Shown here in pieces: positions 29,577 to 47,694 of a stretch of DNA of 57,179 nt. A program made the translations under genes and the position numbers. The notes below the pieces were generated by a model. The model was not told where the DNA came from. It ran no database searches and saw only the letters and a list, made by a program, of their open reading frames with translations. Position 1 is the stretch's first letter; every line of letters starts with the position of its first letter. This DNA is from an uncultured Candidatus Saccharibacteria bacterium (GTDB lineage: Bacteria > Patescibacteriota > Minisyncoccia > Phycocordibacterales > SW-6-46-9), in assembly GCA_964534365.1 (NCBI GenBank), contig CAZHOI010000004.1:1-57179 (forward strand), in the 5' to 3' direction.

Positions 29577-30500
29577 ATGGCCGCCAATTATCTACCTTCT
29601 AAAAAGTTTCAAAAACGAGCTGGAATTGGCTTGGGGGTTTTGGCATTAATTTTGACTGCCGGCACTTTGTTCAACCTTGATTCCAATTCAACCGATGATG
29701 AGACCGCGCCACTAGCATTTTCTAAAACTGATTCAGATCAGGATGGTTTGCGCGATTGGGAAGAGAGAATTTGGGGCAGTGATCCATTCAATCCAGATAG
29801 TGACAATGACGGCATTCTTGACGGTCTCGAGGTCGAAGACGGCCGCGACCCCCTAAAAACGGGCGCTGATGAATTGACTGATTCACGTTTGGCGTCAGTT
29901 TATTCCGGCTACAAACGCCGAAGTCTGGAAAATATTAATATTACCGATCAAATATCTGACAAGATTTTGCCACACAGTTTATTGCTGGCTAACGAGCTAC
30001 GTGAAACCGATCGACTCGCCAACACCAATCGCACCGATTTATTAATTCAGCCGGTCGTCAATGAATATCGTATATCTGATAATAAACTTACTATCGAAGA
30101 CCTTAATCTGGTTCCAGCCAATGCCGAAAGTTTAACGAATTATTTCACCCTGGTGCTAGAAACTGCTAATTCCGGCCTTGGTAATATTGGGGGTAATGAA
30201 GTTTCGCTAGCTCTAAATAGCGATAATCTGAATGTGGAAAAAACCCTTAATAATTATCGCCGAGTGGTAAATGAATTGAGTCGCGCCAGCGTGCCCAGCC
30301 CAATTGCCGAACGTCACATAGCAGTTTTAAATAATTTTATCCGGATGCGAGATAGCTTTAATTTATTATTAAGCGCCGAAGAAGACGACAGTGCTAAAAA
30401 GATTTATGCCCTTGATGAACTAAAAATCCTGCAAAGTCAAAATCTGACTGAAATAGAAAGACTCGCCCAGGCGTGGCGTAATAGTGTCGATAATCTCTAA
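29577..30500 (+). CDS. Membrane-anchored protein with thrombospondin-type-3-like Ca-binding repeats (first gene of the T4SS-like locus)
   Basis: TM helix then DSDQDGLRDWEE / DSDNDGILDGLE repeats; start set to the ATG at 29577. Confidence 0.7.
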   Translation: MAANYLPSKKFQKRAGIGLGVLALILTAGTLFNLDSNSTDDETAPLAFSKTDSDQDGLRDWEERIWGSDPFNPDSDNDGILDGLEVEDGRDPLKTGADELTDSRLASVYSGYKRRSLENINITDQISDKILPHSLLLANELRETDRLANTNRTDLLIQPVVNEYRISDNKLTIEDLNLVPANAESLTNYFTLVLETANSGLGNIGGNEVSLALNSDNLNVEKTLNNYRRVVNELSRASVPSPIAERHIAVLNNFIRMRDSFNLLLSAEEDDSAKKIYALDELKILQSQNLTEIERLAQAWRNSVDNL

Positions 30501-30505
30501 ATTAT

Positions 30506-33500
30506 ATGAACTCTGGACAACTCATGAAATTATTATCAAAGACTATCTCGCTTACCCTGGGTCTAGTTTTTGCGATAGTTTCTTTCATGCCCCAATATGC
30601 CGCAGCTCAAATATCCAGCCTAGAACCCCAACCCCCACGAGCGCCCAATGTAGAGCCTGGCGCGCTGCAATCAATTGATCTAGAAGACACCAATGTGGGT
30701 GCCAGTCTGGTTACTGGTGGCGCCTTTGCAATTGATGAATGTGTCGATCAACCACTGGGTGAGTTTAGCGGCATTCTGTCCAGTAACATGACCGCCATGG
30801 CCACAGAGTTCCTAGGTGGTGCGGGAGTAGTAGATGAAGTTAGCAATGCAGTTGCTACAGCCACAAATATTGCTAATGCTGCCTTGGGCTTGGCTCAGGT
30901 GGGGGCTAAACTAGGCCCATTAATTGGTTTACCTCCGGGCATAGGTGACTTTTTAGGTGGTGCAGAAAAAACCCAGGACGATCGTACCTTCAATGCAATT
31001 TTGCAGTCTTCAACTGAACTAACAAAACTAAATGCCAAAATTGGCGAGGTTCAGGCACGAGGCACGAGTGATATATTGGGGGTTTTGCAAAATATGCAAG
31101 TGTCAGACAATTGTTTGGACCGAGTGGTATTTATTCAGGCCCAAAATCTACTGTTCGACATGCGCAATCAGGCGTCCGAATGGATCGTGTCCGGATTCGA
31201 GGGCGGAAATCCAGGTTTTGTACAAAATATTGAACAGAGGGAACGCAATCTGGCTGCCGCGCAATGGTTAAATTTCCTTGACCCAGATCAAGGATCATTT
31301 AGCGGCATTTGCTCTGCCTTTCGAGAGGACGTAGTATTTAATGTCCGACAAGCCTATAACAGATCATTTGGCGGTGATCCTGCCCAAGTCATTCCCGAGG
31401 TAGATTTATCAACTACCGAGGAACTGTTGCTGCGCCGAGCAGTCACCGATGATGAAGGGGATGGCTGTGCGTTGAATCAAATTACTGGATCAGAAGAAAA
31501 TACCCAGCGGTTTCTAGATGGCGAATTTGTTACCGGCAGTTGGGAAGGATGGTTTACATTGTTTAATGACCCCAATTCTAATCCCAATACTGCCTCCAGG
31601 GTTTATACCCAGCAATTAAACAATTCAATTCAGAGTGAATGGGATGCTGATCGACGCCGACTAGCCTATTCTGGTGGTTATTTAGATGATCGACGTTGTA
31701 TTGACGAAAATGGCAATGCGTCCGAAGTTGGCTTTGCGGGAATATGTGCTGACGGATCAGACCCAATTACCGTAACCCCAGGTAGTGCGGTAGCCGCTGT
31801 AATCGAGGGCTTGGCCCAGGCTGATATTGATAGAGCAGTAATGGTGGACAAAGTTGGCGAGGTTGTAGAATCAATTGGCATGACCTTGATAGGCCAACTG
31901 TTTCCAACTGGATCACAATCACGCGCCCCTGGACTAGCTAACCTTAGCGCGCAGTCATTTGAACAGGCTTTTGCGCAAGCTTATGAAAATACTGCTAATT
32001 TTGCTGGACCGAACCCTGATTCATTCAGCATTGCCATGTTAGATCGACAAGTTTCCACCGAAGAAGCCATGTATTCAATGTTTTCTGATATTTGGGAATT
32101 ACGCAACTCGCAGGGGTTTACGGATGTAGAGCAATGTATTGAAGGGAATTCAAATTTGCAGACCTCATTGCAGGAACTAGATGCGTTGATTGAAAGTATT
32201 ATCCCAGGATCACAGTCTAGCCTTGAAGCCAAATATGATTATGAACCACCTGGGCAATATAAAGTCGATTGGGCAGGGAACGATTTTGAGTGGCTAGAAG
32301 AAAAAGTCTACGGTTTAGAAACTTGCGAAATAGATACTTATGGTGATTATGAGACAGAGATCGATCAATTATTAGAAAGATTTATTGATCGACCGCAGTT
32401 TTCGTTCAGGATGCCTACCGATGGTGATAGTTGGCAAATTTCTATATGTGCACCCCTCGGTGACGGAGGCCGTACCCAATTTTTTAAAATTGGTTACTCT
32501 CCACCAGGATATAGAGAAGCCAATAACAATCTAAAGGTTGATTGGAATGGATTACCTTTTAACTGGAAGCGATATGACCCGTTCCAAAAAGAGAATGCTT
32601 ACGAGATAAGGCAATGTGACACAAGAACCGAAGGAGAATTTGGTTACTCTGCAGGACAAAGATTGTCTACAGACGACGTAAGAGGTCCAAGTAGCTCTGA
32701 CTGGTCAGCCATCTATCCCATCGATGGAAACGAACGCAAAGGAGTGAGAAATTGGTGTGTATATTTTGGGCATTTATTAGGTTTTGCCGAATGTACAGGT
32801 GACAATCAGGATCCTGAGTCAAGAGAGCAGATATCGATAGGTATGAGCAGGGGCTTAGAGTACTTACTAGGAACTAAGCTTAATTATTCAGTTAATGGCA
32901 GTGGCTTATTAGAAATAAATAACTCTAACTGGTACCGCAATCGCTGTGCGCTAGAGGGAATAGGAGATGTAGAAGGAGGGAAAATATATGCAGCCTATAA
33001 AGGATATTACGATCAATCTACACAAGGTTCAGCTGCCTATTCTCCTCAACCAAAACCAACTTCATTAGATGTACTACTGGCTAATATCGCCGTTACCCTG
33101 GATGGTCTGCCAGATTTAATTGCTCCGCAATCAATTATTGACGAAGTCAGACCGGCAGGGGCAGCCGATCGTGCTGCAATTGAAAATGGGTTGTATGACC
33201 TGCGTCAACAATTTAATAGTGGTACCCCCAGTTCGCTAGTCGCGCAATCATTTTATGAACTAGCCCAAAATCGTAACTTCCATAGTCGCGAGGACGTTGA
33301 AATAGCCCGATCTGGTTACGAGCAGATCCTTAACCTATATGAGCTGATACTAGAACAATCCGAGGACTGTCAGACAACACCAGGTGGGGGGGTTACTGAC
33401 ATTCTGGCAGATGGTGACATTGCCGTTGATGGCATTAACACCTACCAGGACGAGATTGATCTGCCAAATGATTACGAGCAGCCAATTACTATTTCCTGGG

Positions 33501-34843
33501 AGACCGAATATTGTGACCCAAATATCGGTGTTTATGTATATCGCAATGGGGTCGAAATTGCCTCGGGCCTATCAGGGTCAGAATTGGATGACACCTTGGT
33601 TGGAGTCGATGCGACCGCTGTTTACGAGCTGTATTGTGGTCGACCTGATGAAACCATCGGCCGTCAGGCCCGATCAACTGATGATGGATCATATAATCAA
33701 AGTAATCGAAACAGAGGACTAGTCGCCCAACTATGGACTATGATTCTACCTACTGCCCAGGCCCAGGTAAATAGTCAGTCCAGCAATAATAAGGCCAGGT
33801 TATTGGACTATGTGATCGTAGATTCTAATTTAAGCGCCGGTAGTGCCGGCAATAATCCAGGCACTATTGCCCAATCCAGCGGAGTATTAACCATCAATGG
33901 TCGTAATAATAATTTCTCGATCGATTCATCGCGGGCTGATCTAAATATATCTTGGGTAACTGATCAATGTCCTACCGATTTAAACCTGTATCGGGACGCG
34001 ATCAATCTATACAGCGGCGAGGCTGACAGTGAATACCGCGACAATCGCATTGGATCCCCTGATACCTATCGTTACGAGCTCTACTGTGGCCAACGTCAAC
34101 CCCATTCGCGTGCTGATCGCGCTTCGGGATCATCTACTACAACCAATGTTAATGGCCAGGTTATCAGCAAATTATTAGACAGCATTCGTGTTAGCGTGAT
34201 TGATGATACTGATCCCGTTGTGATCGAAGATGACGACACCAATGATCCAGCTGTGGGTGATGATAACGAATCAGCTGACGATCAAACTGGTGACAGCCCT
34301 GAACCAAATGGCATTGATGATGATGGGGATGGTTGCATTGATGACACATCCCTAGATTCAGATGGCCAGTGCGACAATGGTGGAGCGTATAATGCCCCTG
34401 AAGAGAATACCGCAAATAATTTGGATGATGACAGTGACGGCTGTATTGATGATTCCTACTTGGACCCGGACGGCAGTTGTAATGATGGTGGCGATTATAC
34501 CCGTGGCGAAGACGAGACAGACCTAGATGAGAGCGCAAACAACATTAATGCAGTTGCCCTGACCAATGGCATTGATGATGATGGGGATGGATTAATTGAC
34601 GAAGACGACGAGGCCAGCCTACCGATTACTGATTTGTCTAATTTAGGTCAGGTTGAAAATGAGGATGAGTCGCCAATAATCTGGTGGTTGTGGCTGCTGA
34701 TACTGCTGTTGATTATTTTGATAGGATACTTTTTATATCGTCTGATTCGATCGCGTCGCAATAAAAATCAAGTTATCGAAATTAATGCTGCCAACGCCGC
34801 CCGACAAACAGAGGTGACGGTGCCAACCCCTGCTAAAAATTAG
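30506..34843 (+). CDS. Large secreted/surface protein (1445 aa) with tandem beta-rich domains, acidic DDDGDG repeats and C-terminal TM anchor
   Basis: Signal peptide (..YAAAQ), two ISW.T..C...YELYCG domains, three N(G/N)(I/L)DDD(G/S)DG repeats, WWLWLLILLLIILIGYFLY followed by RRNK. Confidence 0.75.
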   Translation: MNSGQLMKLLSKTISLTLGLVFAIVSFMPQYAAAQISSLEPQPPRAPNVEPGALQSIDLEDTNVGASLVTGGAFAIDECVDQPLGEFSGILSSNMTAMATEFLGGAGVVDEVSNAVATATNIANAALGLAQVGAKLGPLIGLPPGIGDFLGGAEKTQDDRTFNAILQSSTELTKLNAKIGEVQARGTSDILGVLQNMQVSDNCLDRVVFIQAQNLLFDMRNQASEWIVSGFEGGNPGFVQNIEQRERNLAAAQWLNFLDPDQGSFSGICSAFREDVVFNVRQAYNRSFGGDPAQVIPEVDLSTTEELLLRRAVTDDEGDGCALNQITGSEENTQRFLDGEFVTGSWEGWFTLFNDPNSNPNTASRVYTQQLNNSIQSEWDADRRRLAYSGGYLDDRRCIDENGNASEVGFAGICADGSDPITVTPGSAVAAVIEGLAQADIDRAVMVDKVGEVVESIGMTLIGQLFPTGSQSRAPGLANLSAQSFEQAFAQAYENTANFAGPNPDSFSIAMLDRQVSTEEAMYSMFSDIWELRNSQGFTDVEQCIEGNSNLQTSLQELDALIESIIPGSQSSLEAKYDYEPPGQYKVDWAGNDFEWLEEKVYGLETCEIDTYGDYETEIDQLLERFIDRPQFSFRMPTDGDSWQISICAPLGDGGRTQFFKIGYSPPGYREANNNLKVDWNGLPFNWKRYDPFQKENAYEIRQCDTRTEGEFGYSAGQRLSTDDVRGPSSSDWSAIYPIDGNERKGVRNWCVYFGHLLGFAECTGDNQDPESREQISIGMSRGLEYLLGTKLNYSVNGSGLLEINNSNWYRNRCALEGIGDVEGGKIYAAYKGYYDQSTQGSAAYSPQPKPTSLDVLLANIAVTLDGLPDLIAPQSIIDEVRPAGAADRAAIENGLYDLRQQFNSGTPSSLVAQSFYELAQNRNFHSREDVEIARSGYEQILNLYELILEQSEDCQTTPGGGVTDILADGDIAVDGINTYQDEIDLPNDYEQPITISWETEYCDPNIGVYVYRNGVEIASGLSGSELDDTLVGVDATAVYELYCGRPDETIGRQARSTDDGSYNQSNRNRGLVAQLWTMILPTAQAQVNSQSSNNKARLLDYVIVDSNLSAGSAGNNPGTIAQSSGVLTINGRNNNFSIDSSRADLNISWVTDQCPTDLNLYRDAINLYSGEADSEYRDNRIGSPDTYRYELYCGQRQPHSRADRASGSSTTTNVNGQVISKLLDSIRVSVIDDTDPVVIEDDDTNDPAVGDDNESADDQTGDSPEPNGIDDDGDGCIDDTSLDSDGQCDNGGAYNAPEENTANNLDDDSDGCIDDSYLDPDGSCNDGGDYTRGEDETDLDESANNINAVALTNGIDDDGDGLIDEDDEASLPITDLSNLGQVENEDESPIIWWLWLLILLLIILIGYFLYRLIRSRRNKNQVIEINAANAARQTEVTVPTPAKN

Positions 34844-34940
34844 ATGGTTTTAAACGGTCGTACCGCTTAAAAGTAGTGGTAGTCAACCTAATCCTTGAAC
34901 CCGATCAATCAGGCCTTGCTATCGTGATATTATAAGGGCA

Positions 34941-37481
34941 GTGATTAAATGGTCGCGATTTTTATCAGTGGTTTACCATACAGTAGCGCGTTTTTTTAAA
35001 ACAATATTTTCCCGACTGCAATTATTTCTGACCAAAATAATTCAGTATAAATTTTCGATCATTACTATTGCTGTGGTCGCATTTATTGCGCTGCTGCCAG
35101 AAACTGCCTCGGCCAACATTAACTTTGGCTGTGGTGGGGTTGGAATAGGTGACGCTTTCCCGGATTTTCCGTGTTTATTAGGGCAAACCATGCTGCAATT
35201 AACCTCGGTATTTGCCTTTATTGCCGGTAATCTACTGGATTTGGTGACTAAATTATTTGTATTTGAAATGTCTACCACCCTGGAACAAGGGCAGCTGTTC
35301 GTTACGCCAGAAACTGGCGAATGGGCCGGGGTACCGGTATATCGCGCGATGTGGTTTATCGTGCGCGACCTTGCCAATTTGTCATTTATTTTTATTCTAA
35401 TTTATGCATCAGTGTCGATGATCTTTAACAATAAATTTGGACTAGATGCCAAAAAGATTGTCCCGCAGTTGGTACTAGTGGCAATACTCATGAATTTTTC
35501 ACTGTTTTTTGTACAGGTAGCCACAGATTTTTCCAACTATATTGCGTACCAGTTCTTTACCAATGTCGAAGTCCAGGTCTGGCAAAATGACGAGAATGAA
35601 GAGATTTTGATTGATCCTGAAACTGGCGAGCCGGCTTTTGTCCAAATCGGATCTACCGAATCAGGAGCCGCGACCCTGTCTGACATCATAATGAACGTTA
35701 CCAAGGTCACCGCGCTGGTGGCCAGCCCTGCCGATCTGGCCAGTTCGCAGGCAGCCAGTCGTAGTGCCGAGCTGGATCGTCAGCCCGGATTTGCGTTTGG
35801 ATTTTTTGCCAGTATATTCGTATTTTTTGCCGGTTTGGTTATGCTGGCTGGCGCATTTTTACTATTTCTGCGGTTTTTCATGATTTTGATATTTATGGTG
35901 TCGGCCCCAATTGCCTTTGCCTCTAGCATTGTCGAAGGAGGTAAAAACAAAGATAGTGGCAAAGGGTTGTTTAAAGGCTGGTGGTTGCCTGGACTAACCA
36001 ATCAATTGATTTTTGCACCGGCATATTTTGGACTGCTATATCTGGCCCTACAGTTTTTGCAAACGATTACTGATGCGGGGTTGGGCGCGCCCAAAGACTC
36101 GACCTTTGCCTATTGGGTTCAAAACGCCTTTATATTTATTGTGTCAGCTGCATTTCTGATTGCCGCTATATGGTATGCCAAAAGACTCTCGATTGCTGGT
36201 TCTAAACTAGCAGTAAATAACACTAAACGCATGTTTGCAGCAGGAGTTTTGGGTGGAGCTGGATTAGCAGGGCGTCAAACTATAGGGCGCTTATCAAATC
36301 GCTACCTAAACTCTAACCAAGATCGACTAAAACAAAGAATTGCAAGCGGTGGGGTTAGCGGTAAAATTGCCCGAATGCAATTAGATGCAGGTAAAAGGAT
36401 GACCAAAGCCAGTTTCGACGGACGACTAGCCCTTGATCGTATCCCAGGAATTAGAATGAATGAAATCTCTTATGGCAATCGTGATAGCCTCAAGAAAGGA
36501 TTCGGGGGAAGAAGAGCCGAAAAACTTGAGAAAGAAACCGAGAAGGTCGTAGACGTTGCACAAGCTCTAAATGAAAAGCAACGCGACCGTTACGCGAATA
36601 GGTTGATGTCACAAAAAACAGGGCTAAAGGGACTGTTCCAATTTATAACTCACAGTCAAGATGTTGAAACAGGAAAACTTGAACCTCGGCCCGGAGCAAA
36701 AAAACTACTGAACAAATATAATAATATTGTTATGGGCTTGGGCGGTTCACTAGAGGACAAATTACTTGAAGGAAGTCCTGGTTTAAGTAAGCGAAAAACA
36801 GCTGCTGCAGTAAATAGAACCAAGAATTTCTTAGCGCGTAATGAGCCAGTGTACGGTCAAGGGGCTGAGCCCGATTGGATTACAAAAGCGCAAGAAAGAG
36901 AAATAACCAAAAGGAAACATCAGGCTGAGGTTTTAATCGCAGAAAACGAACGAGAGGCCGCCACCTTAGAGCGCGAGATGGCTGAGCGTCAGGCAGAAGC
37001 TAAGAAACATGCTAACAGGCTTAAAGATTTACGTAAGAGGCTTGAAAGAGCGAGAGAGCTAGGAAATGAAACTGAGGTCAACCGATATGAAGGTGAATTG
37101 AATGATGAGCAGCAAAGATTGGCTGGAATAAACAATCAAATAAATACCAGGAACTCTCGGCTGAATACACTCAAAAAAGACACCGCCAGAATTCAAAAGG
37201 TGAAAAGTAGAAGAATAAACTCGGCAAGGGATGCATACAATCGAGATAGGACACAGATGCGTTACTCTAATGGAGGTTATATTAATTACAAATTAGGAAA
37301 CGCAATCTCTGGATCAAATTGGGAAAGAACTAAAACAAGTCTCAAGAAAAGAAAGGACGCAGATGAATATTTCAACCGTATGAAAGATGTCGTTAGTGAA
37401 GGGAACTTGAATGCTCCGGAAAAACGAACCGCTGCTGACGCTGGAGACTCAGAGGATTCTTCGGATGGAAACGAAAACTAA
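34941..37481 (+). CDS. VirB6/TrbL-like polytopic membrane protein with long basic coiled-coil C-tail
   Basis: W..VRDLAN..FIF, LV.VAIL.NFSLFF, multiple TM segments; context next to PrgI and VirB4. Confidence 0.7.
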   Translation: MIKWSRFLSVVYHTVARFFKTIFSRLQLFLTKIIQYKFSIITIAVVAFIALLPETASANINFGCGGVGIGDAFPDFPCLLGQTMLQLTSVFAFIAGNLLDLVTKLFVFEMSTTLEQGQLFVTPETGEWAGVPVYRAMWFIVRDLANLSFIFILIYASVSMIFNNKFGLDAKKIVPQLVLVAILMNFSLFFVQVATDFSNYIAYQFFTNVEVQVWQNDENEEILIDPETGEPAFVQIGSTESGAATLSDIIMNVTKVTALVASPADLASSQAASRSAELDRQPGFAFGFFASIFVFFAGLVMLAGAFLLFLRFFMILIFMVSAPIAFASSIVEGGKNKDSGKGLFKGWWLPGLTNQLIFAPAYFGLLYLALQFLQTITDAGLGAPKDSTFAYWVQNAFIFIVSAAFLIAAIWYAKRLSIAGSKLAVNNTKRMFAAGVLGGAGLAGRQTIGRLSNRYLNSNQDRLKQRIASGGVSGKIARMQLDAGKRMTKASFDGRLALDRIPGIRMNEISYGNRDSLKKGFGGRRAEKLEKETEKVVDVAQALNEKQRDRYANRLMSQKTGLKGLFQFITHSQDVETGKLEPRPGAKKLLNKYNNIVMGLGGSLEDKLLEGSPGLSKRKTAAAVNRTKNFLARNEPVYGQGAEPDWITKAQEREITKRKHQAEVLIAENEREAATLEREMAERQAEAKKHANRLKDLRKRLERARELGNETEVNRYEGELNDEQQRLAGINNQINTRNSRLNTLKKDTARIQKVKSRRINSARDAYNRDRTQMRYSNGGYINYKLGNAISGSNWERTKTSLKKRKDADEYFNRMKDVVSEGNLNAPEKRTAADAGDSEDSSDGNEN

Positions 37482-37486
37482 TAAAT

Positions 37487-38332
37487 ATGAATAAATTACC
37501 CCCAGAATTAAAACAACATCTGCAAAATATTCCTGATTTTATGAAGGATATCAGCCAGGTCAAGGAATTTGTAAGCACAGCTGATATTAAATTAACTGAT
37601 GACCAAAAAAGCGCTTTGCGTCTACAACTATTACTAGTCATGACTGGCCTCAAAGACTATCGTTTATTGCCAATAATCATCGAGGAATTTTGTGAACTGG
37701 ATTTTGAAGTATCAGCCTATATAGCTGACAGATTTATGGAAGAAGTGATCGAGCCAATGGGTTATGGATATTTATCAACGGTGTTAAAAGCAGCTAATAA
37801 TGAGGATGTTACCTTTGATCCTGATGACGTAGAAATCTTGCAGACCATATCTCAAGAGCTAGAAGACCAAGAAGGGGCCCCAGAAGTGCCAAAGCCGCCA
37901 AAGGTGGTGTCGCCAAAGTTGGTATTGAATCAAGATCAGAAACGCACCGCGTATCAGGATCTGCGAAATCAGGATTGGTACGAGAATTTACTGAACGAGC
38001 TGTATAAAAAACACAAAATCGGTGATGAGGCTGCCCGCGCACTGGAGCAGGTATTGCAGAAGGCTGTGATTGATGATGATACTACTGGCCTAAAGCGTTT
38101 GGCCACCAATCCGGCACTGGTACCGGTGTCACGAGACCTGCAGGACATCCATGATTATATAGAGGACAAATTTCAAGAAGTGTTAAGGGACATTCAGCAA
38201 AACACAGCCCCAAATCCAGGTATTGATAAAAATAATGATGGAAAGTCGGCTAAAACCCAGTCTAACATTGACCAAATCCGGCCCAAACCTCATCAGGATG
38301 ACCATGATCCGTACCGTGAAGAGGTCAAGTAG
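37487..38332 (+). CDS. Hypothetical acidic cytoplasmic protein of the T4SS-like locus
   Basis: 281-aa ORF, co-oriented; ends with DPYRE. Confidence 0.6.
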   Translation: MNKLPPELKQHLQNIPDFMKDISQVKEFVSTADIKLTDDQKSALRLQLLLVMTGLKDYRLLPIIIEEFCELDFEVSAYIADRFMEEVIEPMGYGYLSTVLKAANNEDVTFDPDDVEILQTISQELEDQEGAPEVPKPPKVVSPKLVLNQDQKRTAYQDLRNQDWYENLLNELYKKHKIGDEAARALEQVLQKAVIDDDTTGLKRLATNPALVPVSRDLQDIHDYIEDKFQEVLRDIQQNTAPNPGIDKNNDGKSAKTQSNIDQIRPKPHQDDHDPYREEVK

Positions 38333-38347
38333 CATATATCATAAAAC

Positions 38348-38698
38348 ATGGAGCAGAAAACCTTTCACGAAAAGCTATCAAACAAAATCGAGACTTTTAT
38401 TCACCAGTCATACGATATTGCTAATCAATTTCCAAAAGAAGAACTATACGGAGCAGGTTCACAACTTAAACGTGCAGCACTTTCGATCGGCTTAAACACG
38501 ACCGAAGGTTATGCTAGATCAAGCAGTAAGTCGTATCGTCACTTTTTATTAATTGCCTATGGGTCATTAAAAGAAAGTTTGTATGTTATTAACTTTTCTT
38601 CAAAGCGCTCTTGGATTACCACCAAACAATCGCAAGATCTTCTAGATAAAGGTGATGAATTGGGAAAAATGTTATGGAGCATTATCTCGAAACTGTGA
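38348..38698 (+). CDS. Four helix bundle protein (23S rRNA IVP-like family)
   Basis: FPKEELYGAGSQLKRAALSIGLNTTEGYAR, FLLIAYGSLKE. Confidence 0.9.
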   Translation: MEQKTFHEKLSNKIETFIHQSYDIANQFPKEELYGAGSQLKRAALSIGLNTTEGYARSSSKSYRHFLLIAYGSLKESLYVINFSSKRSWITTKQSQDLLDKGDELGKMLWSIISKL

Positions 38699-38725
38699 TC
38701 GTGCTTTATGCTTTGTGTTACATGA

Positions 38726-38758
38726 GCACTTGATAATTATTGTATAATTATCAAGTGC
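38726..38758. repeat. Perfect 15-bp inverted repeat over the prgI -10 box and GTG start
   Basis: gcacttgataattat-tgt-ataattatcaagtgc. Confidence 0.9.
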
Positions 38759-39174
38759 AGCATCAAACTCCGCAATTTATCGATATCGAAGACAAGGTGG
38801 TTGGACCGTTTACGGTCAAGCAATTTATTTATTTGATCGCCGGGGGAGGGGCCGCGTTTTTGCTGTTTCGATTTTTGCCATTTTTCTTGTTTTTAGTGGT
38901 AGCAACTCCTATTGTGTCGTTATTTTTGGCCCTGGCATTTTACAAACACAATGAACGTCCGTTTGTTCATTTGGTTGAGTCAGTTTTTAAATATTTGGTC
39001 AACACCAGGTTATATCTGTGGCGCCACCGCAAGCCAACTGACGTCGCCCGTGAACAGGCCAGTGTGCAAGCACCGCAAAAAACCAAAGTGGTTAATTCAG
39101 GGGCGGGCATGGGATCATCAAAGCTAAAGGATCTTTCTTGGAACCTAGAAGTCAAGAAAGAGGATCTTTCTTGA
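38755..39174 (+). CDS. PrgI family protein (T4SS VirB3-like membrane component)
   Basis: PQFIDIEDKVVGPFTVKQFIYL, two TM helices, LAFYK.NERPF; GTG start 6 nt after tataat. Confidence 0.85.
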   Translation: MQHQTPQFIDIEDKVVGPFTVKQFIYLIAGGGAAFLLFRFLPFFLFLVVATPIVSLFLALAFYKHNERPFVHLVESVFKYLVNTRLYLWRHRKPTDVAREQASVQAPQKTKVVNSGAGMGSSKLKDLSWNLEVKKEDLS

Positions 39175-39179
39175 CTTCT
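39147..39179. repeat. Perfect 15-bp inverted repeat over the prgI stop
   Basis: agaagtcaagaaaga-gga-tctttcttgacttct. Confidence 0.9.
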
Positions 39180-39194
39180 GACTTGAACCAGAAC

Positions 39195-39581
39195 ATGTAC
39201 ACGGACAACACAAGTATAAAACCAGATGGATTTAGATTTCTTAAGTGGCAAATTTATGACGATGCTCAAAATTTATATTTAGAAATAAATACAATCACTA
39301 AAGATCTGCCAAAAGCTATGCGATTTGAAGCCACCTCTCAACTGTTACGATCAAGCCATTCTGTAGTTTTAAACATAGCTGAAGGAGCTGGAAAAGAGTC
39401 CGATAAAGAACTTAGGACGTTTTTGTCAATTTCAATGGGTTCGCTGTATGAAACCGTGGCTTGCCTTGATTCATTGGTGAAACTTAACTTGATTAAAGAA
39501 AGTGAATTCCAAAATTTAAAGGCTCGTTACAATAAATTAGCGTCTCAAATAGGAGGTTTTAGAAAGTCTTTGAAACAGTAG
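39195..39581 (+). CDS. Four helix bundle protein (second copy, divergent)
   Basis: FRFLKWQIY, SQLLRSSHSVVLNIAEGAG, FLSISMGSLYETVACLD; start set to the ATG at 39195. Confidence 0.9.
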   Translation: MYTDNTSIKPDGFRFLKWQIYDDAQNLYLEINTITKDLPKAMRFEATSQLLRSSHSVVLNIAEGAGKESDKELRTFLSISMGSLYETVACLDSLVKLNLIKESEFQNLKARYNKLASQIGGFRKSLKQ

Positions 39582-39608
39582 TTATTCTTGTCCCAGTTCT
39601 TGTCCAGG

Positions 39609-39636
39609 TAACTTTTGCTATAATTAGCAAAAGTTA
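39609..39636. repeat. Perfect 12-bp inverted repeat over the -10 box and start of the 39636 gene
   Basis: taacttttgcta-taat-tagcaaaagtta. Confidence 0.85.
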
Positions 39637-40271
39637 TGGCTGAACCCCTCAAAGCACCAGCGACGCAAAACTTTGTTCCGGTGAAAGAAATCCGTGATGG
39701 GGTAGTGATATTGAAAAATAATTCATTGTGTGCGGTATTATTGGCTTCATCACAAAACTTTGCCCTTAAATCCGGCGACGAGCAGACCGGGGTATTAATG
39801 CAATTTCAAAATTTTCTAAATTCACTGGATTTTCCAGTACAGATTGTAGTGCAATCACGCAAAGCTGATATTCGACCCTATATCCAAATGTTGGAAGAGC
39901 GCCTGAAAACTCAAACCAATGAACTGTTACGGGTGCAAAACTATGAATACATCCGATTTGTGCAGTCGTTCGTTGAACAGGTAGATATTATGAAAAAGTC
40001 ATTTTTCGTAGTAGTACCTTATAATCCCGCTATCGCAGACACTACATCAATCACCTCCTTGGTCAAAGGTAAATCAACTGATGATCAACTAACGCTCGAG
40101 CGCTTTGAAGAGTTCCGCACCCAGCTAAATCAGCGATTGGCTATTGTCGAGTCAGGACTTAATCGTTCAGGTATTCGCACCTTGGCGTTAGGAACCGATG
40201 AACTGATCGAGTTGTTCTATCACACCCTAAACCCTGCTGATGCTACGTCAAATGCCCCAGTAAGCAGCTAG
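39636..40271 (+). CDS. VirB4/TraC-associated protein (resembles the N-terminal part of conjugative ATPases)
   Basis: TQ.FVPVKEIRDGVVILK, S.NFALKS.DEQ, FLNSLDFPVQIVVQSRK.DI.PY; lies directly upstream of VirB4. Confidence 0.7.
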   Translation: MAEPLKAPATQNFVPVKEIRDGVVILKNNSLCAVLLASSQNFALKSGDEQTGVLMQFQNFLNSLDFPVQIVVQSRKADIRPYIQMLEERLKTQTNELLRVQNYEYIRFVQSFVEQVDIMKKSFFVVVPYNPAIADTTSITSLVKGKSTDDQLTLERFEEFRTQLNQRLAIVESGLNRSGIRTLALGTDELIELFYHTLNPADATSNAPVSS

Positions 40272-40378
40272 CTGCTTACTGACAACTAATAAAATCTGAG
40301 TCGCTTAGTGATTTCTTAGATTGTAAGTAGTTAGTTGTAGGTGGTAGGAGGTTAAAATTAGATGCTATAATTTTAACC
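40258..40378. repeat. Gene-less palindromic cassette between the 39636 gene and VirB4
   Basis: 24-bp perfect palindrome 40258-40281; nested stems; 7-mer array 40321-40348; 11-bp inverted repeat 40350-40360/40368-40378. Confidence 0.8.
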
Positions 40379-40380
40379 AC

Positions 40381-42180
40381 ATGGGACTTCTGGACTTTAT
40401 AAAATCTGATGACAAACCCGAGCCAGCAGCGGCTGATTCTGGTATCAGCAGCCTGGCATTGTCGGATGTGATTGCTCCATCTGCGCTCGAGATCAAGCCC
40501 AAATCAGTTAACGTATCTGGTAAATTGGCCCGAACGTTATTTGTAATTTCTTATCCCCGTTTTTTAACTGACGGCTGGTTTGCCCCGATTATCAACCTGG
40601 ATCGAATCTTTGACGTTTCACTGCATATTCATCCGGTAGATACTGGGGATTTATTAAAGAAATTCCAGAAAAAAGTAGCCGAGGTTGAATCACAAATCTC
40701 TATACGGCAAGAAAAGGGCATGGTGCGCGACCCAAAATTGGAAACCGCTTATCGTGATCTGGAAAATTTGCGTGATCAGTTAATGCAGGCCCAGGAAAAA
40801 ATGTTTGATGTCGGTCTCTACCTAACTATTTATGCCGATAATGAAACCGATTTAAATAAATTTGAATCCGAAATCAAATCAATTCTCGAGTCCAAATTGA
40901 TTTATCTGAAACCCGCCCTATTTCAGCAAGAACAAGGCCTGCAAACAGTACTACCGACCGCTACTGACGCCCTGCAGGTTCAGTCCAAACTAAACTCGTC
41001 CCCGTTATCGAGCCTATTTCCATTTTTATCCTTTGATTTGTCATCAGACACCGGGATTCTTTACGGTATCAATCGACATAATTCCGGATTGATCTTATTC
41101 GATCGATTTTCAATGCCCAATTACAATTCGATCACCTTTGCGACCTCTGGAGCGGGTAAATCATTTGCCACGAAGCTCGAGCTACTACGATCAATGATGT
41201 TTGATATTGACGTGATTGTGATTGACCCCGAGCGCGAATACGAATATTTGGCCGAGGCGGTAGGGGGCCGGTATTTCAATATCTCATTATCGTCCGAACA
41301 CCACATCAACCCATTTGATATTCCACCGGTCGGCCCAGATGAATCACCCGAGGACGTCTTGCGGTCACATATCATCTCTTTGGTGGGATTATTTCGCATT
41401 ATGTTAAGCGGACTTACTCCTGAAGAAGATTCGATAATAGACCAGGCGATTACCGAGACCTACGCCCTCAAAGACATCAATCCGGGAATTGATTTTAGTC
41501 AAGCCGAGCCACCACTGTTGTCAGATTTCGAACTGGTATTAGCCGGTATCGAAGGGGCCGAAAATATTCTAGCGCGACTGGCCAAATACACTCGTGGTAC
41601 CTGGTCTGGATTTCTGAATCGTCCGTCAAATGTCGATATTAATAAGAAGTTTATTGTTTTTTCGGTGCGTGACATGGAGGACGAGCTAAAACCAGTCGCC
41701 ATGCATTTGATTACTAACTTTATCTGGAACCGAGTGAGGCGTGAACTGCGCAAACGAATTTTGGTAATTGACGAGGCCTGGTGGATGATGAAAGAAGAAG
41801 ATACGGCATCATTTTTATTTGGTCTAGCCAAACGAGGTCGTAAATACTATCTGGGTGTATCAACCATTACCCAGGACGTCGGCGATTTCCTGCGGTCGCC
41901 ATATGGTTTGCCAATTATCACTAACTCGTCAATCCAGCTTTTGTTAAAACAATCGCCAACTTCAATTGATTTACTGCAAGAGACTTTTAACCTAACTGAT
42001 GAAGAAAAATATCTGCTGTTGGAATCAGGGGTAGGCGAGGGCATATTCTTTGCCGGTTTAAAGCACGTAGCCATTCGCATTATTGCGTCCAATACCGAAT
42101 CCCAAATCATAACCTCGGACCCATCCGAGATACTGGCGATTAAAAAGGCCAAACAGCAATTTGCTGACAGTAATGAATAA
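40381..42180 (+). CDS. VirB4/TraC-family type IV secretion ATPase
   Basis: Walker A ATSGAGKS, IDPEREY, HHINPFD, Walker B LVIDEAW, GRKYYLG...ITQDV.DFL. Confidence 0.9.
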   Translation: MGLLDFIKSDDKPEPAAADSGISSLALSDVIAPSALEIKPKSVNVSGKLARTLFVISYPRFLTDGWFAPIINLDRIFDVSLHIHPVDTGDLLKKFQKKVAEVESQISIRQEKGMVRDPKLETAYRDLENLRDQLMQAQEKMFDVGLYLTIYADNETDLNKFESEIKSILESKLIYLKPALFQQEQGLQTVLPTATDALQVQSKLNSSPLSSLFPFLSFDLSSDTGILYGINRHNSGLILFDRFSMPNYNSITFATSGAGKSFATKLELLRSMMFDIDVIVIDPEREYEYLAEAVGGRYFNISLSSEHHINPFDIPPVGPDESPEDVLRSHIISLVGLFRIMLSGLTPEEDSIIDQAITETYALKDINPGIDFSQAEPPLLSDFELVLAGIEGAENILARLAKYTRGTWSGFLNRPSNVDINKKFIVFSVRDMEDELKPVAMHLITNFIWNRVRRELRKRILVIDEAWWMMKEEDTASFLFGLAKRGRKYYLGVSTITQDVGDFLRSPYGLPIITNSSIQLLLKQSPTSIDLLQETFNLTDEEKYLLLESGVGEGIFFAGLKHVAIRIIASNTESQIITSDPSEILAIKKAKQQFADSNE

Positions 42181-42185
42181 ATTTT

Positions 42186-42854
42186 ATGGCCCGAAATACT
42201 AGTTCAGTAAATTCTGAACCGACCCAGCGCCGGCGAAAATCATTCAACCTCGACCCGATTGATTCAAACCGTAATCGCAGTGATCAGTTCAGCGGCTATC
42301 AAGATGACCTGACCCCAAGATCAACCACCAAACAGCAATTGCGAAAGAGTTCTGGACTGACATCAATAAAAAAAGAACGGGAAGGATCAGATTTTGAAGT
42401 AAATCCTACTGGTGAGCTAGGCAACAGACGCCCATCGCCTAATCGAATACGTCGCAATGATCAACGTCGCAGCCAAACGTCTGGCAGACGTGCAGCCACA
42501 AAACTAATTAAAAACGCGGTTGATTCTAAGGGCAACCTTGCCGGGTTAGCCCTGAAATCCCTGGGTGATGCCGAGCTGCGAAAAGTTTTTATGGAACATT
42601 TTTGGATTTTAGCTATTGCAGTTATCGGTGATTTACTAGACGCCATTCCATTTTTTATTGGTTTTTTTATCAATTTAATATGTTGGATCCTGGTGAAATA
42701 TCTTTTTGATTTAAAAGGTGTCAATTTTGCTGGCCGGGTTACTAAAAACTCCTTTGGCCTGATGAATGTTGGTGCTGAAGTAATTGTCGGGGCAATCGCA
42801 TTTTGGCCTGGATTAACCATTGGTGTAATTCAAACCATTCTCTCTGAAGATTAA
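42186..42854 (+). CDS. Hypothetical membrane protein (basic disordered N-half, C-terminal hydrophobic hairpins)
   Basis: ILAIAVIGDLLDAIPFFIGFFINLICW; co-oriented in the T4SS-like locus. Confidence 0.6.
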   Translation: MARNTSSVNSEPTQRRRKSFNLDPIDSNRNRSDQFSGYQDDLTPRSTTKQQLRKSSGLTSIKKEREGSDFEVNPTGELGNRRPSPNRIRRNDQRRSQTSGRRAATKLIKNAVDSKGNLAGLALKSLGDAELRKVFMEHFWILAIAVIGDLLDAIPFFIGFFINLICWILVKYLFDLKGVNFAGRVTKNSFGLMNVGAEVIVGAIAFWPGLTIGVIQTILSED

Positions 42855-42874
42855 TATCTTGCTATACTTAGCGT

Positions 42875-43528
42875 ATGAAGGTTTCATTAATAATTTTTGC
42901 TGCTTTGCTAGTTACTGTTCTAGGTTTAACCTCCGAGTCTCAAGCTCAGAATAGTAATGTGGTTTTGATTGCCGAATCTGATTCATATGTGCCTAGTAAC
43001 TATGCTGGAGCTCGACCTCTTACCCCTGGTTCAACCATTAGCCTAGTAGCCTTGGGAGCTCCGCGAATTGCTAAATATCAGTGGCGCATTAATGGTCGTC
43101 AATTGACCGAGCTGTCTGGCATTGGCCAGTCACGGGTTGATATTCAATTAACCGATCGACCAATTGATGCCCAGGTATCGGTTTATCAAAACAGTGATTT
43201 GATCGGGGTAGACCAAATAACCATAAATCCCGATCCATTGGAAATTGTCCTATACCAAAATCATCCGACCAGGGGACCACTGTTTCAAACTGCCTTGTCA
43301 GGCCAAATCCGATCAACCAGTCCGGTAATTGATATTATTGGTAGTGCCTATGGTGCCAATGGAGTCAATCCGCTGTTGCAGTGGCAAATTAACAACAGCG
43401 AATCATTTGCCCTACCTGCTGTTTCACTGGATCGGCAAGCTAGTCCACAAACCACCATTGTCGCTAGCTATCTTAACAATATTTTTACCCAGGCAACCAA
43501 AGAGCTGCGGATTCAATTCAGTCGCTAG
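42875..43528 (+). CDS. Hypothetical secreted beta-rich protein
   Basis: Signal peptide ending SQA-Q; own tatact box 6 nt upstream. Confidence 0.65.
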   Translation: MKVSLIIFAALLVTVLGLTSESQAQNSNVVLIAESDSYVPSNYAGARPLTPGSTISLVALGAPRIAKYQWRINGRQLTELSGIGQSRVDIQLTDRPIDAQVSVYQNSDLIGVDQITINPDPLEIVLYQNHPTRGPLFQTALSGQIRSTSPVIDIIGSAYGANGVNPLLQWQINNSESFALPAVSLDRQASPQTTIVASYLNNIFTQATKELRIQFSR

Positions 43529-43534
43529 ATTTAT

Positions 43535-44716
43535 ATGAAATTAAATGATAAAACTAAATTTTTAATCGCCGGCGGGGTATTGGCCCTGCTGTTTGTAATA
43601 TTGTTTTTCTACTACCTCAACCGGGCCACAAATCGCCTTGGCTCAGAAACTGCCACCGTGCCTAATAATAGCCAGTTTGAGGTCCTAGATAGTTCAGGTA
43701 ATTTAGTAGCTGGCAATCAGCCTAGCCCTAGCCAGAATTCTGAAAATCAATCCGAAATACAACTAATCAGTGAAGGCCCGGTGGCCGGATTTAGGATTGT
43801 TGAAAATGATTTTGGAGTGGCACTGCGATACATTAGCGCCGAAACTGGTCAGATTTATAATTATTTACCTGGCCCTAGTGCGACAACACGCCTAACTACT
43901 GACACCCTGCTGGCAATCACCCGCGCACAGTGGGTAGGCAACGATCATATTTTATTGACCTATTATGCTGAAGGACAGCCGGTTAATTTATTAGCCCAAA
44001 TTGATCTAGCAAACGCCAGACTGAATACCGTGGTTTTTCCCCAAACCCTCGAGTCGATTGCCAAGGCTGATGATGACCAGGCGTATTATCTATTGCGGGA
44101 CAATGAGGGCAGCAGTTTGTATCGATATCAATTTGATACTGGGCGTAGTAATTTTGTTCAGGCATTTGATATTAGCGCTCTCGATTTGCGCGACATTGAT
44201 GGGGAAAGCGATTTATTGCTGGCAACTACAAAAATTCATCAGAGCCATGATCAAGCTGGACTGATAATTGATGTTGCGGACAATTCATCAAGCCTGCTAC
44301 AAACCGGAGTTGAATTCTCCCAAGGAGCGCTGCTATTTGAAAACTTTAGGGTATTAATCAACCAGGCCGGTCTGGTACTGCAAAATATTGATTCGGGAGA
44401 AGATATTTTGGTTGCGGGAAATTTTGTGGTTGATAAATGTGCCGTCGATTTAATGTCAACCGGCGAGCTAGTATGTGCCGAGGTAATTCTGACGTCCTCG
44501 CAATTGCGTAATTGGCCGACCAACTGGTTTCGCGGGCAATTACGTCCTGTCGAGCGGCTAGTTGCGATCAACCCCCAGTTTGGCAGTAAACGGATTTTGG
44601 CTGATTTGGGATCTCAATATGATATCAGTTACTTACAAACCTCGGCCGATGACATTTATTTCATCAACCGTCGCGACGGGCGATTGTATAGTTATGAAGT
44701 AGCTAATTTAGATTGA
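43535..44716 (+). CDS. Membrane-anchored protein, probable beta-propeller-like ectodomain
   Basis: N-terminal TM helix; repeated short beta-strand pattern. Confidence 0.6.
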   Translation: MKLNDKTKFLIAGGVLALLFVILFFYYLNRATNRLGSETATVPNNSQFEVLDSSGNLVAGNQPSPSQNSENQSEIQLISEGPVAGFRIVENDFGVALRYISAETGQIYNYLPGPSATTRLTTDTLLAITRAQWVGNDHILLTYYAEGQPVNLLAQIDLANARLNTVVFPQTLESIAKADDDQAYYLLRDNEGSSLYRYQFDTGRSNFVQAFDISALDLRDIDGESDLLLATTKIHQSHDQAGLIIDVADNSSSLLQTGVEFSQGALLFENFRVLINQAGLVLQNIDSGEDILVAGNFVVDKCAVDLMSTGELVCAEVILTSSQLRNWPTNWFRGQLRPVERLVAINPQFGSKRILADLGSQYDISYLQTSADDIYFINRRDGRLYSYEVANLD

Positions 44717-44769
44717 TAATTATTAAATTCTGTTAAATAACTTTGCCCAACCCTTGTTATAATCTGGTT

Positions 44770-46383
44770 GTGAAGTCAGTTTTATTTAATTGTTTTGTTT
44801 TATCATTTGCTTTGTTAGGGGTTTTTTCAGTTGTCCAGGCTCAGGATTATGCCGCTCCAGCTAGTAACCCAGTTTGTTCAAGAAATGTACAAGATGCAGT
44901 TTACTGCGCTGCTTTTGAACGCCTCGACGAGCAACTATATGAAGTGTATTTCAGGAACTCAGAAGCTTGCGAAGACTTTTGTAACGACACAACCTGTAAA
45001 AGCACGCCAGAATGTATAAACCTTGCCATTGAAGATTCTGGCACCACCCCTCAAGGACAAGCTTGCTTTAATGCCCAAAACTACTGTAGGGCGCGCTCAG
45101 AAGACAATTGTCAGGCGCTTAACAATGGAACCAGGGAAGTAAATTGTGAATATGTAGAAAATAGTGATCAATGTATTCCGTCTAGGGGTGAATGTGGGAG
45201 TTATTGTTATTCAGAGGTAGATTGGCAAAATGAAGTAGTATGCCGTGATAGCCGTGATGAATGCATAATAGAGCTTCTTGATGAAAACCCGGAACCCGGA
45301 GACTTGCGATTCCCTGCGTGTGGTTGTGATCAATCAAATGTTTCAGTTGAACAAGCCAATGGCGGTTGTGGATTACGAGTAGGCACCAGTGCCAGTGAGT
45401 GGCGTGAGGGAATCGGCGACGACAATCAATCTCTATTTGGTTCTCCAATTGATGCGTCATTCGAATTGGATGGATTCAAGCCGTTTGAAGACGTAAGGGT
45501 GGGGGATAATGAATTATATGGCGATAACAACTTGCCCGGCTTTATTAATACGTTTCTAAGCTTTGTGATTGGGTTGTCCGGGGCCATTGTGGTCGTCATG
45601 ATAGTAGTTGGTGGATTTCAATACGTGCTGGCGGCGGCGGCACCAGTTAAAAATGATGCCAAAGACAAGATTCGGGATGCCCTGATCGGTTTGGGACTAT
45701 TGCTGGGATCTGTCGCATTACTAAACACTATTAACCCACAGCTGCTAAACCTGGCGGGATTACGACCGGTAGAAATTACTATCACCGAGCGTGAGTTTCA
45801 AGGTGATACTGATGTGTTGCTAGGATTGGGTGGTGCAAATTATGGCAGTGATGCGGTGCAGAAGGCAATTTATGAATATGAAGCCAATTGGGCGAGCGGT
45901 ACAAAGAAAGAAGACGATGAATCTCAATACTCAATACTCAATACTTACTGGGAAAGTATTGGGTGGAACGAGTCTCAATGGTCACCATCTGGTACTGCAT
46001 GGAGCGCCGCTTTTATCTCTTATGTAACTGGTTTGCGAGCTTCAGCCCATTGGCAGTACATTAATGCAGCTTATGATGATCGGAAAAATGGCTGGGCCTT
46101 CTGTGAACCTAATGAACACGTTCCGCAACCAGGAGACTTAGTATGTCGAACCAGGGCAGGTGGCTCATTTACTCCTCAAGGAAGCTATACTTCACATTGT
46201 GATTTAGTAGTATCTAACAATGGAACCTCAATCGAATATATTGGTGGTAACGTCTCAAATTCTAGCTCTGAGGGCCGGGGTGTAACGGTAAATAAAAAGT
46301 CTAGATCGCTTTCAGCTGGCAAAACACCTTCATTCTTTAATATTGGCGCCTTAGTTCCTCCGGGTAAAAATTGTTCCGGCTAA
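44770..46383 (+). CDS. Pilin (TrbC/VirB2-like) fusion: Cys-rich domain + pilin + DUF2272/CHAP-like domain
   Basis: Signal peptide, 18 Cys, pilin hairpin (..MIVVGGFQY...AKDKIRDALIGL.LLL....LNTINPQL), C-terminal WSAAFISYV..P.PGDLVC..SHCDLVV..GGN; GTG start 6 nt after tataat. Confidence 0.75.
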   Translation: MKSVLFNCFVLSFALLGVFSVVQAQDYAAPASNPVCSRNVQDAVYCAAFERLDEQLYEVYFRNSEACEDFCNDTTCKSTPECINLAIEDSGTTPQGQACFNAQNYCRARSEDNCQALNNGTREVNCEYVENSDQCIPSRGECGSYCYSEVDWQNEVVCRDSRDECIIELLDENPEPGDLRFPACGCDQSNVSVEQANGGCGLRVGTSASEWREGIGDDNQSLFGSPIDASFELDGFKPFEDVRVGDNELYGDNNLPGFINTFLSFVIGLSGAIVVVMIVVGGFQYVLAAAAPVKNDAKDKIRDALIGLGLLLGSVALLNTINPQLLNLAGLRPVEITITEREFQGDTDVLLGLGGANYGSDAVQKAIYEYEANWASGTKKEDDESQYSILNTYWESIGWNESQWSPSGTAWSAAFISYVTGLRASAHWQYINAAYDDRKNGWAFCEPNEHVPQPGDLVCRTRAGGSFTPQGSYTSHCDLVVSNNGTSIEYIGGNVSNSSSEGRGVTVNKKSRSLSAGKTPSFFNIGALVPPGKNCSG

Positions 46384-47443: not shown

Positions 47444-47526
47444 ACCAGACAGTATAAACTAGCCAACGTTCAACATAAACTATATCTAGCTAATCTACTA
47501 GGATCACCCGCTTTTGCAAGGAAGTA

Positions 47527-47546
47527 TACTGCGATATATCGCAGTA
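47527..47546. promoter_or_regulatory. 20-bp perfect palindrome, copy 1
   Basis: tactgcgatatatcgcagta followed 4 nt later by tgttataac. Confidence 0.8.
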
Positions 47547-47671: not shown

Positions 47672-47694
47672 ATGGTGTTATAATAGATTTCGAT

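Follow-up and report, generated by a model that had tools for sequence, protein, structure and literature searches.

A 57,179-nt stretch of DNA, which represents the entire contig 4 of the 15-contig, 755.7-kb genome (estimated to be 97% complete) of an uncultured member of the Patescibacteria and is hereafter called the window, was found to carry an operon for a type IV secretion system (T4SS) at positions 29553-46383. We are highly confident that this locus is the Paceibacteria version of the T4SS of the Patescibacteria clade, that is, a chromosomal and vertically inherited system that arose from monoderm MPF-FATA conjugation and has lost DNA processing; this confidence applies to the identity of the system and not to its substrate. 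The locus matches point for point the Patescibacteria T4SS described in papers of 2023-2025 and is therefore a rediscovery. It is already in print that a relaxase is lacking, that the genes sit close to dnaA, rnpA and ksgA, and that the system is read as 'co-opted' (PMC10633639, PMC12102498; also PMC12857230). An earlier examination of the same DNA from its letters alone (the sequence-only reading) had proposed a domesticated apparatus rather than a conjugative element, which is also the published view (PMC10633639, PMC12102498, PMC12857230). This proposal proved right because no relaxase or att repeats were found, the G+C content is contig-like, the same site is occupied in dozens of species, VirB4 is near-universal, and VirB4 agrees with DnaA.

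The operon comprises thirteen open reading frames (ORFs), all intact, all on the + strand and separated by gaps of 5-109 nt, in the following order: a TSP3 Ca-repeat protein, a 1445-aa surface protein, a VirB6-like protein, a 281-aa protein, a 23S rRNA intervening-sequence protein (IVP 1), PrgI, a second such protein (IVP 2), a TrsD-like protein, VirB4, a 222-aa protein, a 217-aa immunoglobulin (Ig)-like protein, a 393-aa beta-propeller protein and a 546-aa pilin-DUF2272 fusion (Table 1). The co-oriented gene set recognised in the sequence-only reading is thus present where it had been placed, and so is its setting between rsmA and jag-yidC-dnaA, with rnpA also in the downstream flank. The gene list itself was incomplete: it lacked both IVP genes as well as those for the 281-aa and 222-aa proteins, and it counted two exported proteins between VirB4 and the pilin, where three genes lie. 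For comparison, VirB4 was scanned in one genome per species, which yielded >570 relatives, and the best 80 loci were compared; their VirB4s share 70-76% identity with the present one, and all are labelled Parcubacteria or Paceibacteria-type.

The core secretion proteins could be assigned with different degrees of certainty. VirB4 matched the CD1110 family (NF045971) with 373 bits against a cut-off of 325 over profile positions 170-732, and it carries a Walker A-like motif, ATSGAGKS, and a Walker B motif, ILVIDE, that aligns to hhh(h)DE in relatives. PrgI matched PF12666 with 37.7 bits, over the cut-off of 27, and is present in 74/80 loci. Both proteins had been named correctly from the sequence alone. 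The product of the gene directly upstream of virB4, formerly described as a VirB4-associated protein, exists as claimed, and its identity can now be refined to a TrsD-like protein, which is a polypeptide of its own with homology to the N-terminal domain of VirB4; it matched positions 103-264 of the NF045975 profile, positions 2-113 of NF045971 and the TrsD profile NF041427. The TrsD-like gene precedes VirB4 in 76 of the 80 loci, with ~53% identity. The idea that VirB4 is a pseudogene, being divided between two ORFs that differ in frame and lie 109 nt apart, was rejected because this split is the norm among the relatives. The spacer itself (40272-40380) is peculiar in that in most relatives the two genes abut or are no more than a few tens of nt apart.

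The 846-aa protein encoded upstream of PrgI is plausibly, if on weak support, VirB6-like, judging from its topology, its position before PrgI and matches of its orthologues. It has ~6-7 transmembrane (TM) segments in residues 28-410, followed by a ~430-aa basic coiled-coil tail. No Pfam or NCBIfam match was obtained for the protein itself, nor any match in PDB by profile search, and the earlier assignment is plausible from topology and position. When orthologues were scanned singly, TrbL/VirB6 was the sole recurring family (5/34, best 4e-4). An orthologue is present in 59/80 related loci.

The locus is conserved in both position and sequence across the Paceibacteria. The order kept among the related loci runs from uvrD and rsmA through the TSP3 protein, a large secreted protein, the VirB6-like protein, a small soluble protein and PrgI to TrsD, VirB4, a small protein with 2-3 TM helices, the Ig-like protein, the pilin and the propeller protein, and ends with jag/yidC/rnpA on the opposite strand and dnaA. 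The dnaA gene lies a median of 7.5 kb past the virB4 start (49 loci), and rsmA a median of 9 kb before it (36 loci). VirB4 was detected in 194 of 201 evenly sampled class genomes (186/191 of those of high quality; 155/159 genera), nearly always as a single copy. Pairwise distances of VirB4 and DnaA among the 48 genomes with both proteins were strongly correlated (Mantel r 0.83, reached by 0/2000 permutations), and FastTree trees of the two proteins have 15 of 45 splits in common, against a random expectation of 0.19. In the same 48 genomes, mean pairwise identity was 76.5% for VirB4 and 58.5% for DnaA; VirB4 is the most conserved protein of the 20-kb neighbourhood, ahead of DnaA, and the T4SS is under stronger constraint than DnaA. 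The nearest plasmid VirB4s, all from Firmicutes or Actinobacteria, show 29-36% identity, whereas class relatives show 55-76%. Thus, the same gene order at the same site recurs in dozens of Paceibacteria species, with a VirB4 that tracks DnaA; a linked relaxase, coupling protein or att site, or a VirB4 phylogeny incongruent with vertical inheritance, which the sequence-only reading had named as grounds for giving up its proposal, did not appear.

Genes for mobilisation were sought in the whole genome. None of seven relaxase-related Pfam families (PF03432, PF13814, PF02486, PF01076, PF03389, PF08751 and PF07514) was matched at E <= 0.1, MOBM/TcpM and MOBB not having been searched, and each of the seven gave matches in some control genomes. 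The lack of a relaxase noted earlier in and beside the locus therefore extends, for these families, to the 97% complete genome. The sole tyrosine recombinase in the window is an Xer-like protein (14861-15802), 14 kb off and separated by housekeeping genes, and no att-like direct repeats flank the locus, merely short, imperfect and chance-like ones; the claimed lack of an integrase and att repeats is hence borne out. The G+C content of the locus (0.40-0.46) is similar to that of the contig and the genome.

The claimed lack of a coupling protein holds for the locus and not for the genome, in which two VirD4/TrwB-superfamily ATPases are encoded on other contigs. The gene on contig 9 lies between genes for surface proteins with PKD domains and precedes secA by three genes, and the one on contig 2 has neighbours of unassigned function. 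Neither ATPase has a predicted TM helix, both bear long disordered Lys/Ser-rich or helical extensions, and their NCBIfam matches cover the P-loop region only and fall far under the cut-offs; a membrane-anchored VirD4/TcpA coupling protein linked to the operon was not found. The VirD4-like ATPase domain was detected in 119/121 class genomes (114/114 of high quality), usually in two copies, the closer of which shows 55-74% identity across the class. In the class, this type of ATPase is no less universal than VirB4, though unlinked to it, in agreement with a survey that counted 5,713 VirD4 homologues in 2,918 genomes, mostly distant from virB4 (PMC12102498). It is a possibility that these TM-less ATPases are the missing coupling proteins and act in trans. 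When the additional pilin genes described below are taken into account, the system is spread over four or more genomic sites.

Several points weigh against the identification of the locus or against its details. As described above, the VirB6 identity rests on topology, position and weak matches in 5/34 orthologues. No VirB8-like (NTF2-fold) protein was found, with folds predicted for the 393-aa and 217-aa candidates and not for the 281-aa and 222-aa ones. The 80 loci were picked by VirB4 similarity, and the VirB4 identity figures are somewhat inflated as a result. Five supported splits of the VirB4 tree conflict with supported DnaA splits, and occasional exchange within the class is possible. 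As the genome consists of 15 contigs and is 97% complete, an unlinked relaxase could sit on the missing DNA or belong to one of the two groups, MOBM/TcpM and MOBB, outside the search. Finally, the function of the T4SS is stated to be unknown for Southlakia epibionticum in a 2024 perspective (PMC11665869), and likewise in a 2025 nomenclature review (PMC12857230).

Among known systems, the T4SS surveyed in Paceibacteria is the closest. Quinonero-Coronel et al. (2025) surveyed 3,035 genomes, in which the VirB4s of Patescibacteria form a monophyletic clade inside MPF-FATA, with TrsD, PrgI, VirB6 and VirB2 near virB4 and almost no relaxases, and with dnaA, dnaN, rnpA, ksgA and rpmH near virB4 in Paceibacteria (PMC12102498). 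The present locus shares with these systems the TrsD-like protein and VirB4, PrgI/VirB3, the VirB6-like protein, the VirB2-like pilin, the lack of a relaxase, the distant VirD4 homologues, the dnaA/rnpA/ksgA neighbourhood and the inheritance of VirB4 within the class. Nothing essential differs; the two IVP inserts, the 109-nt spacer, the exchanged order of the pilin and propeller genes and the DUF2272 domain on the pilin are local to the present copy.

The T4SS of Southlakia epibionticum ML1, a member of another class (Saccharimonadia), is likewise chromosomal, of Gram-positive type and devoid of a recognisable relaxase or coupling protein in its cluster. Wang et al. (2023) reported that this cluster (SEML1_0006-0019) and its pilins are essential, and proposed protein export or another role (PMC10633639). 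Judging by the locus tags (0006-0019), it lies near the start of the genome numbering. Its cluster contains the pilin array, with separate genes for a peptidase and a lysozyme downstream of virB4, whereas the present genome has a single pilin-enzyme fusion in the operon and a pilin array on another contig. With monoderm MPF-FATA conjugation systems (Tn916/CTn-type integrated conjugative elements (ICEs), pCF10 Prg, pIP501 Tra and pGO1 Trs) the locus shares the CD1110-type VirB4, TrsD, PrgI, a VirB6-like protein, a predicted cell-wall hydrolase function and the lack of an outer-membrane core. Those systems, however, possess VirB8-like proteins, a relaxase and a coupling protein anchored in the membrane and are without VirB2 pilins, whereas here pilins are present and the other three were not found. 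The DNA import systems ComB of Helicobacter pylori and Ced of archaea are also T4SS-derived and relaxase-independent, but no specific sequence relationship to them extends beyond the P-loop ATPase.

In the mechanism that we propose, PrgI and the VirB6-like protein would hold VirB4 at the membrane, and VirB4 would pull pilins from the membrane and build an extracellular filament or conduit. The wall-enzyme module of the operon pilin would open a peptidoglycan layer, and the part that contacts the host would be made up of the giant surface protein together with the Ca-repeat, Ig-like and beta-propeller proteins. As for the cargo that crosses this contact, we favour proteins or enzymes that would be exported in a contact-dependent manner, although we put the chance of this at a little under even. 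Uptake of nucleic acids or further macromolecules from the host is the main rival and appears unlikely, though it deserves consideration; a smaller share of our estimate goes to adhesion alone, and the remainder to undecided or other roles, including any residual part in DNA transfer.

The alternative that survives best is a DNA-uptake machine like ComB or Ced, in which a VirB4/VirB6 channel and the unlinked VirD4-like ATPases would import host DNA or nucleotides. This idea, raised in PMC11665869, draws on the two VirD4/TrwB-superfamily ATPases and their presence throughout the class, on weak NCBIfam similarities between VirB4 and CedB (1.9e-8) and between a VirD4-like protein and CedD (2.6e-7), on the genes for ComM/YifB and a UvrD/PcrA helicase close upstream, and on the occurrence of comF, recG and radA near the T4SS in the ABY1 class (PMC12102498). 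Nevertheless, the Ced similarities are limited to the P-loop region and lie far under the curated cut-offs, and the VirD4-like proteins are without membrane helices and unlinked to the operon. In S. epibionticum, moreover, deletion of comEC ends transformation and leaves viability unaffected, and the T4SS is essential whereas the VirD4 homologue is not (PMC12857230, PMC12102498). We therefore regard DNA uptake as rather improbable. If, on the other hand, the filament were a purely adhesive or structural pilus, a VirB2-type fibre and adhesins would hold the cell on its host with no transport at all. The many pilin paralogues, the wealth of surface proteins in the operon (TSP3, giant, Ig-like and beta-propeller proteins) and the lack of any recognised substrate or effector would suit such a role, but the VirB6-like channel protein is kept in 59/80 loci, suggesting a translocon, the enzyme modules of the pilins suggest penetration of a wall beyond mere binding, and Saccharibacteria already possess type IV pili for adhesion and motility (PMC12857230); we consider this alternative improbable to a still greater degree. 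Lastly, a conjugative element that is integrated or in decay and no longer has a relaxase merits hardly any credence: VirB4 does belong to the CD1110 family, which typifies Firmicutes ICEs and plasmids, and is split over two ORFs, but all ORFs are intact, the split is shared by 76/80 relatives, no relaxase, integrase or att repeats were found, the composition is contig-like, and an identical site in dozens of species is combined with a VirB4 that is near-universal in the class and co-varies with DnaA.

Within the domesticated T4SS, the pilin encoded by the last gene of the operon merits a closer description. The sequence-only reading had called it a pilin fusion, and matches to T4SS_pilin and DUF2272 bear this out. 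The 546-aa protein consists of a Cys-rich N-terminal domain (24 Cys in the protein), a hairpin (residues 262-335) whose two TM helices span 271-289 and 312-330, and, at the C-terminus, a DUF2272 module; it scored 25.2 bits with PF18895 in the protein scan and 29.4 bits, over the cut-off, in the genome scan, and matched NF045849 at 1e-3. T4SS_pilin was matched by 47 of its 54 orthologues (best 4.7e-10) and TrbC/VirB2 by three, and conservation among the orthologues is confined to the hairpin (residues 262-350). Outside the operon, six further pilin-like genes were found: contig 1 carries a tandem array of five, and contig 5 a gene for a Cys-rich protein ending in a pilin hairpin, both sites being far from the T4SS operon. 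PF18895 had five matches among them, four in the array and one on contig 5. The order of the pilin and propeller genes (43535-46383) is swapped in the window: the pilin gene comes first in related loci, the propeller gene first here.

At least 100 residues follow the hairpin in 39 of the 54 operon pilins. These extensions, scanned alone, matched NlpC/P60 (3), SLT_2 (3), YkuD (2), VanY (2), Peptidase_M15_4 (1), Extensin-like_C (1) and DUF2272 (1, the pilin of this window); whole-protein scans found the same enzyme families, which places the enzyme modules at the C-terminus. If the basic inter-helix loop faces the cytoplasm, as its sequence suggests, these modules would be extracellular. The 39 extensions form 25 groups unlinked by BLAST, and close relatives on the VirB4 tree sometimes carry different groups. 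The candidate for a VirB1-like hydrolase is thus the predicted DUF2272 domain fused to the pilin (no match to it was found among PDB sequences), with NlpC/P60, SLT, VanY/M15 or YkuD in its place in relatives. VirB1 homologues have been associated with virB4 specifically in Paceibacteria (PMC12102498), and no description of pilin-enzyme fusions was found in that survey or in the searched literature; the interchangeable C-terminal peptidoglycan-enzyme modules on the pilin hairpins of relatives may thus be a new observation. We tentatively suggest, while thinking it somewhat unlikely to hold in full, that the operon pilin of Paceibacteria is a modular carrier, a VirB2-VirB1 fusion in which a conserved two-helix hairpin bears a fast-swapping extracellular wall-enzyme module.

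Table 1. Coordinates of the T4SS operon, its flanks and related genes on other contigs (contig 4, i.e., the window, unless another contig is named).
Feature	Position	Strand	Evidence
rsmA/ksgA, upstream flank	28753..29523	+	PF00398 9e-50
Membrane-anchored TSP3 Ca-repeat protein, 315 aa	29553..30500	+	PF18884 1.4e-9
1445-aa surface protein	30506..34843	+	signal peptide, C-terminal TM anchor
VirB6-like polytopic protein, 846 aa (plausible)	34941..37481	+	topology, position, weak orthologue matches
Soluble acidic 281-aa protein	37487..38332	+	conserved slot between VirB6-like protein and PrgI
Four-helix-bundle (23S rRNA IVP) gene 1, operon insert	38348..38698	+	PF05635 2.7e-25
PrgI/VirB3-like membrane protein, 144 aa	38740..39174	+	PF12666 3.2e-9
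Four-helix-bundle (23S rRNA IVP) gene 2, operon insert	39195..39581	+	PF05635 1.3e-27; ATG at 39195
TrsD-like protein, 211 aa	39636..40271	+	NF045975 5e-10, NF041427 0.007
VirB4 ATPase, CD1110 / MPF-FATA type, 599 aa	40381..42180	+	NF045971 3e-111
222-aa protein, two C-terminal TM helices	42186..42854	+	basic disordered N-terminus
Secreted 217-aa protein, two Ig/FN3-like beta-sandwich domains	42875..43528	+	AlphaFold2 pLDDT 86
Bitopic 393-aa protein, N-terminal TM helix and extracellular beta-propeller	43535..44716	+	AlphaFold2 pLDDT 74
VirB2-like pilin fusion, 546 aa	44743..46383	+	PF18895 1.8e-5, PF10030 DUF2272 1.5e-15
Downstream flank: jag(-), 77-aa ORF(-), TrpR-like(+), yidC(-), rnpA(-), dnaA(+)	46961..51124		
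dnaA	49763-51124	+	
Five small VirB2-like pilin genes in tandem (93, 119, 90, 227, 137 aa)	contig 1 141582-143626	-	
500-aa Cys-rich protein ending in pilin hairpin	contig 5 43478-44980		
VirD4/TrwB-superfamily ATPase, 746 aa	contig 9 2199-4439		TrwB_AAD_bind 5e-9, TraG-D_C 3e-5
VirD4/TrwB-superfamily ATPase, 959 aa, ATPase in C-terminal half	contig 2 64206-67085	-	

The remaining operon genes encode mostly surface or exported proteins. The Ca-repeat and 1445-aa surface proteins of the sequence-only reading were both recovered, the former by its PF18884 match and the latter by its signal peptide and C-terminal TM helix. The TSP3 protein, which likely starts at the ATG at 29577, has one TM helix at 24-42 and positional orthologues in 20 loci. 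In the 1445-aa protein, TM helices at 7-25 and 1391-1409 enclose a conserved domain at ~residues 200-470 and acidic D-rich repeats, with repeats at 34307-34602; no Pfam, NCBIfam or PDB family was matched, and relatives fill its slot with orthologues of 324-989 aa. A VirB5-like identity for this large protein upstream of VirB6 was considered and dropped, as neither Pfam scanning of 22 orthologues nor a profile search of PDB yielded any consistent match.

Pfam/NCBIfam scans gave no family match for the 281-aa protein, which evolves fast and whose place is taken up in relatives by a soluble ORF of 180-300 aa in the same slot, or for the 222-aa protein, whose slot in relatives holds a small ORF with 2-3 TM helices. 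The 217-aa and 393-aa proteins were folded from orthologue alignments. In Foldseek, the 217-aa model, whose protein was found in 44 loci, matched FN3/Ig adhesin modules and not the NTF2/VirB8 fold, and the 393-aa model, with 26 positional orthologues, matched WD40, TolB and Kelch propellers (2e-7 to 1e-5). Both proteins were accordingly rejected as VirB8, their predicted folds being tandem Ig/FN3-like domains and a beta-propeller, respectively; most Patescibacteria are reported to be without a recognisable VirB8 (PMC12102498), in agreement with these folds. The two IVP genes that flank prgI are mutually unrelated, and similar genes occur near there in 8 and 5 of the 80 loci (e.g. L004:8542-8904).

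A 194-aa ORF lies between the pilin gene and jag. Upstream of rsmA are genes for ComM/YifB (23833-25365), an M23+LysM peptidase (25426-26328, - strand) and the UvrD/PcrA helicase (26710-28653), the last of which is syntenic in 25 related loci. A 19-nt palindrome, ACTGCGATATATCGCAGTA, occurs in three copies at 47528-48147, bracketing the TrpR-like gene between jag and yidC. An Rfam scan of the window returned four tRNAs only, and scans for promoters and terminators gave counts at or below shuffled expectation. The locus had also been described as lying next to oriC. The nearby dnaA is real, but the window does not fix the position of oriC because DnaA boxes occur in it at chance level and the minimum of the cumulative GC skew falls at ~15-16 kb, beside the Xer-type gene and not at dnaA.

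The T4SS, which is nearly universal in the ultra-small Patescibacteria and is found beside dnaA, is of biological importance, being essential for epibiotic growth in the sole species of Patescibacteria tested. The copy described here adds no new principle; it is a clean Paceibacteria example with quantified constraint, and it adds evidence that VirD4-like ATPases are as class-wide as VirB4 yet unlinked to it. If the operon pilin is indeed a VirB2-VirB1 fusion, it would equip the pilus or the mouth of the channel with an enzyme that cuts or remodels the wall and is matched to that of the particular host. The swappable enzyme modules of the pilins offer a handle on whether the machine breaches the host wall, through a comparison of enzyme specificity with the type of host wall.

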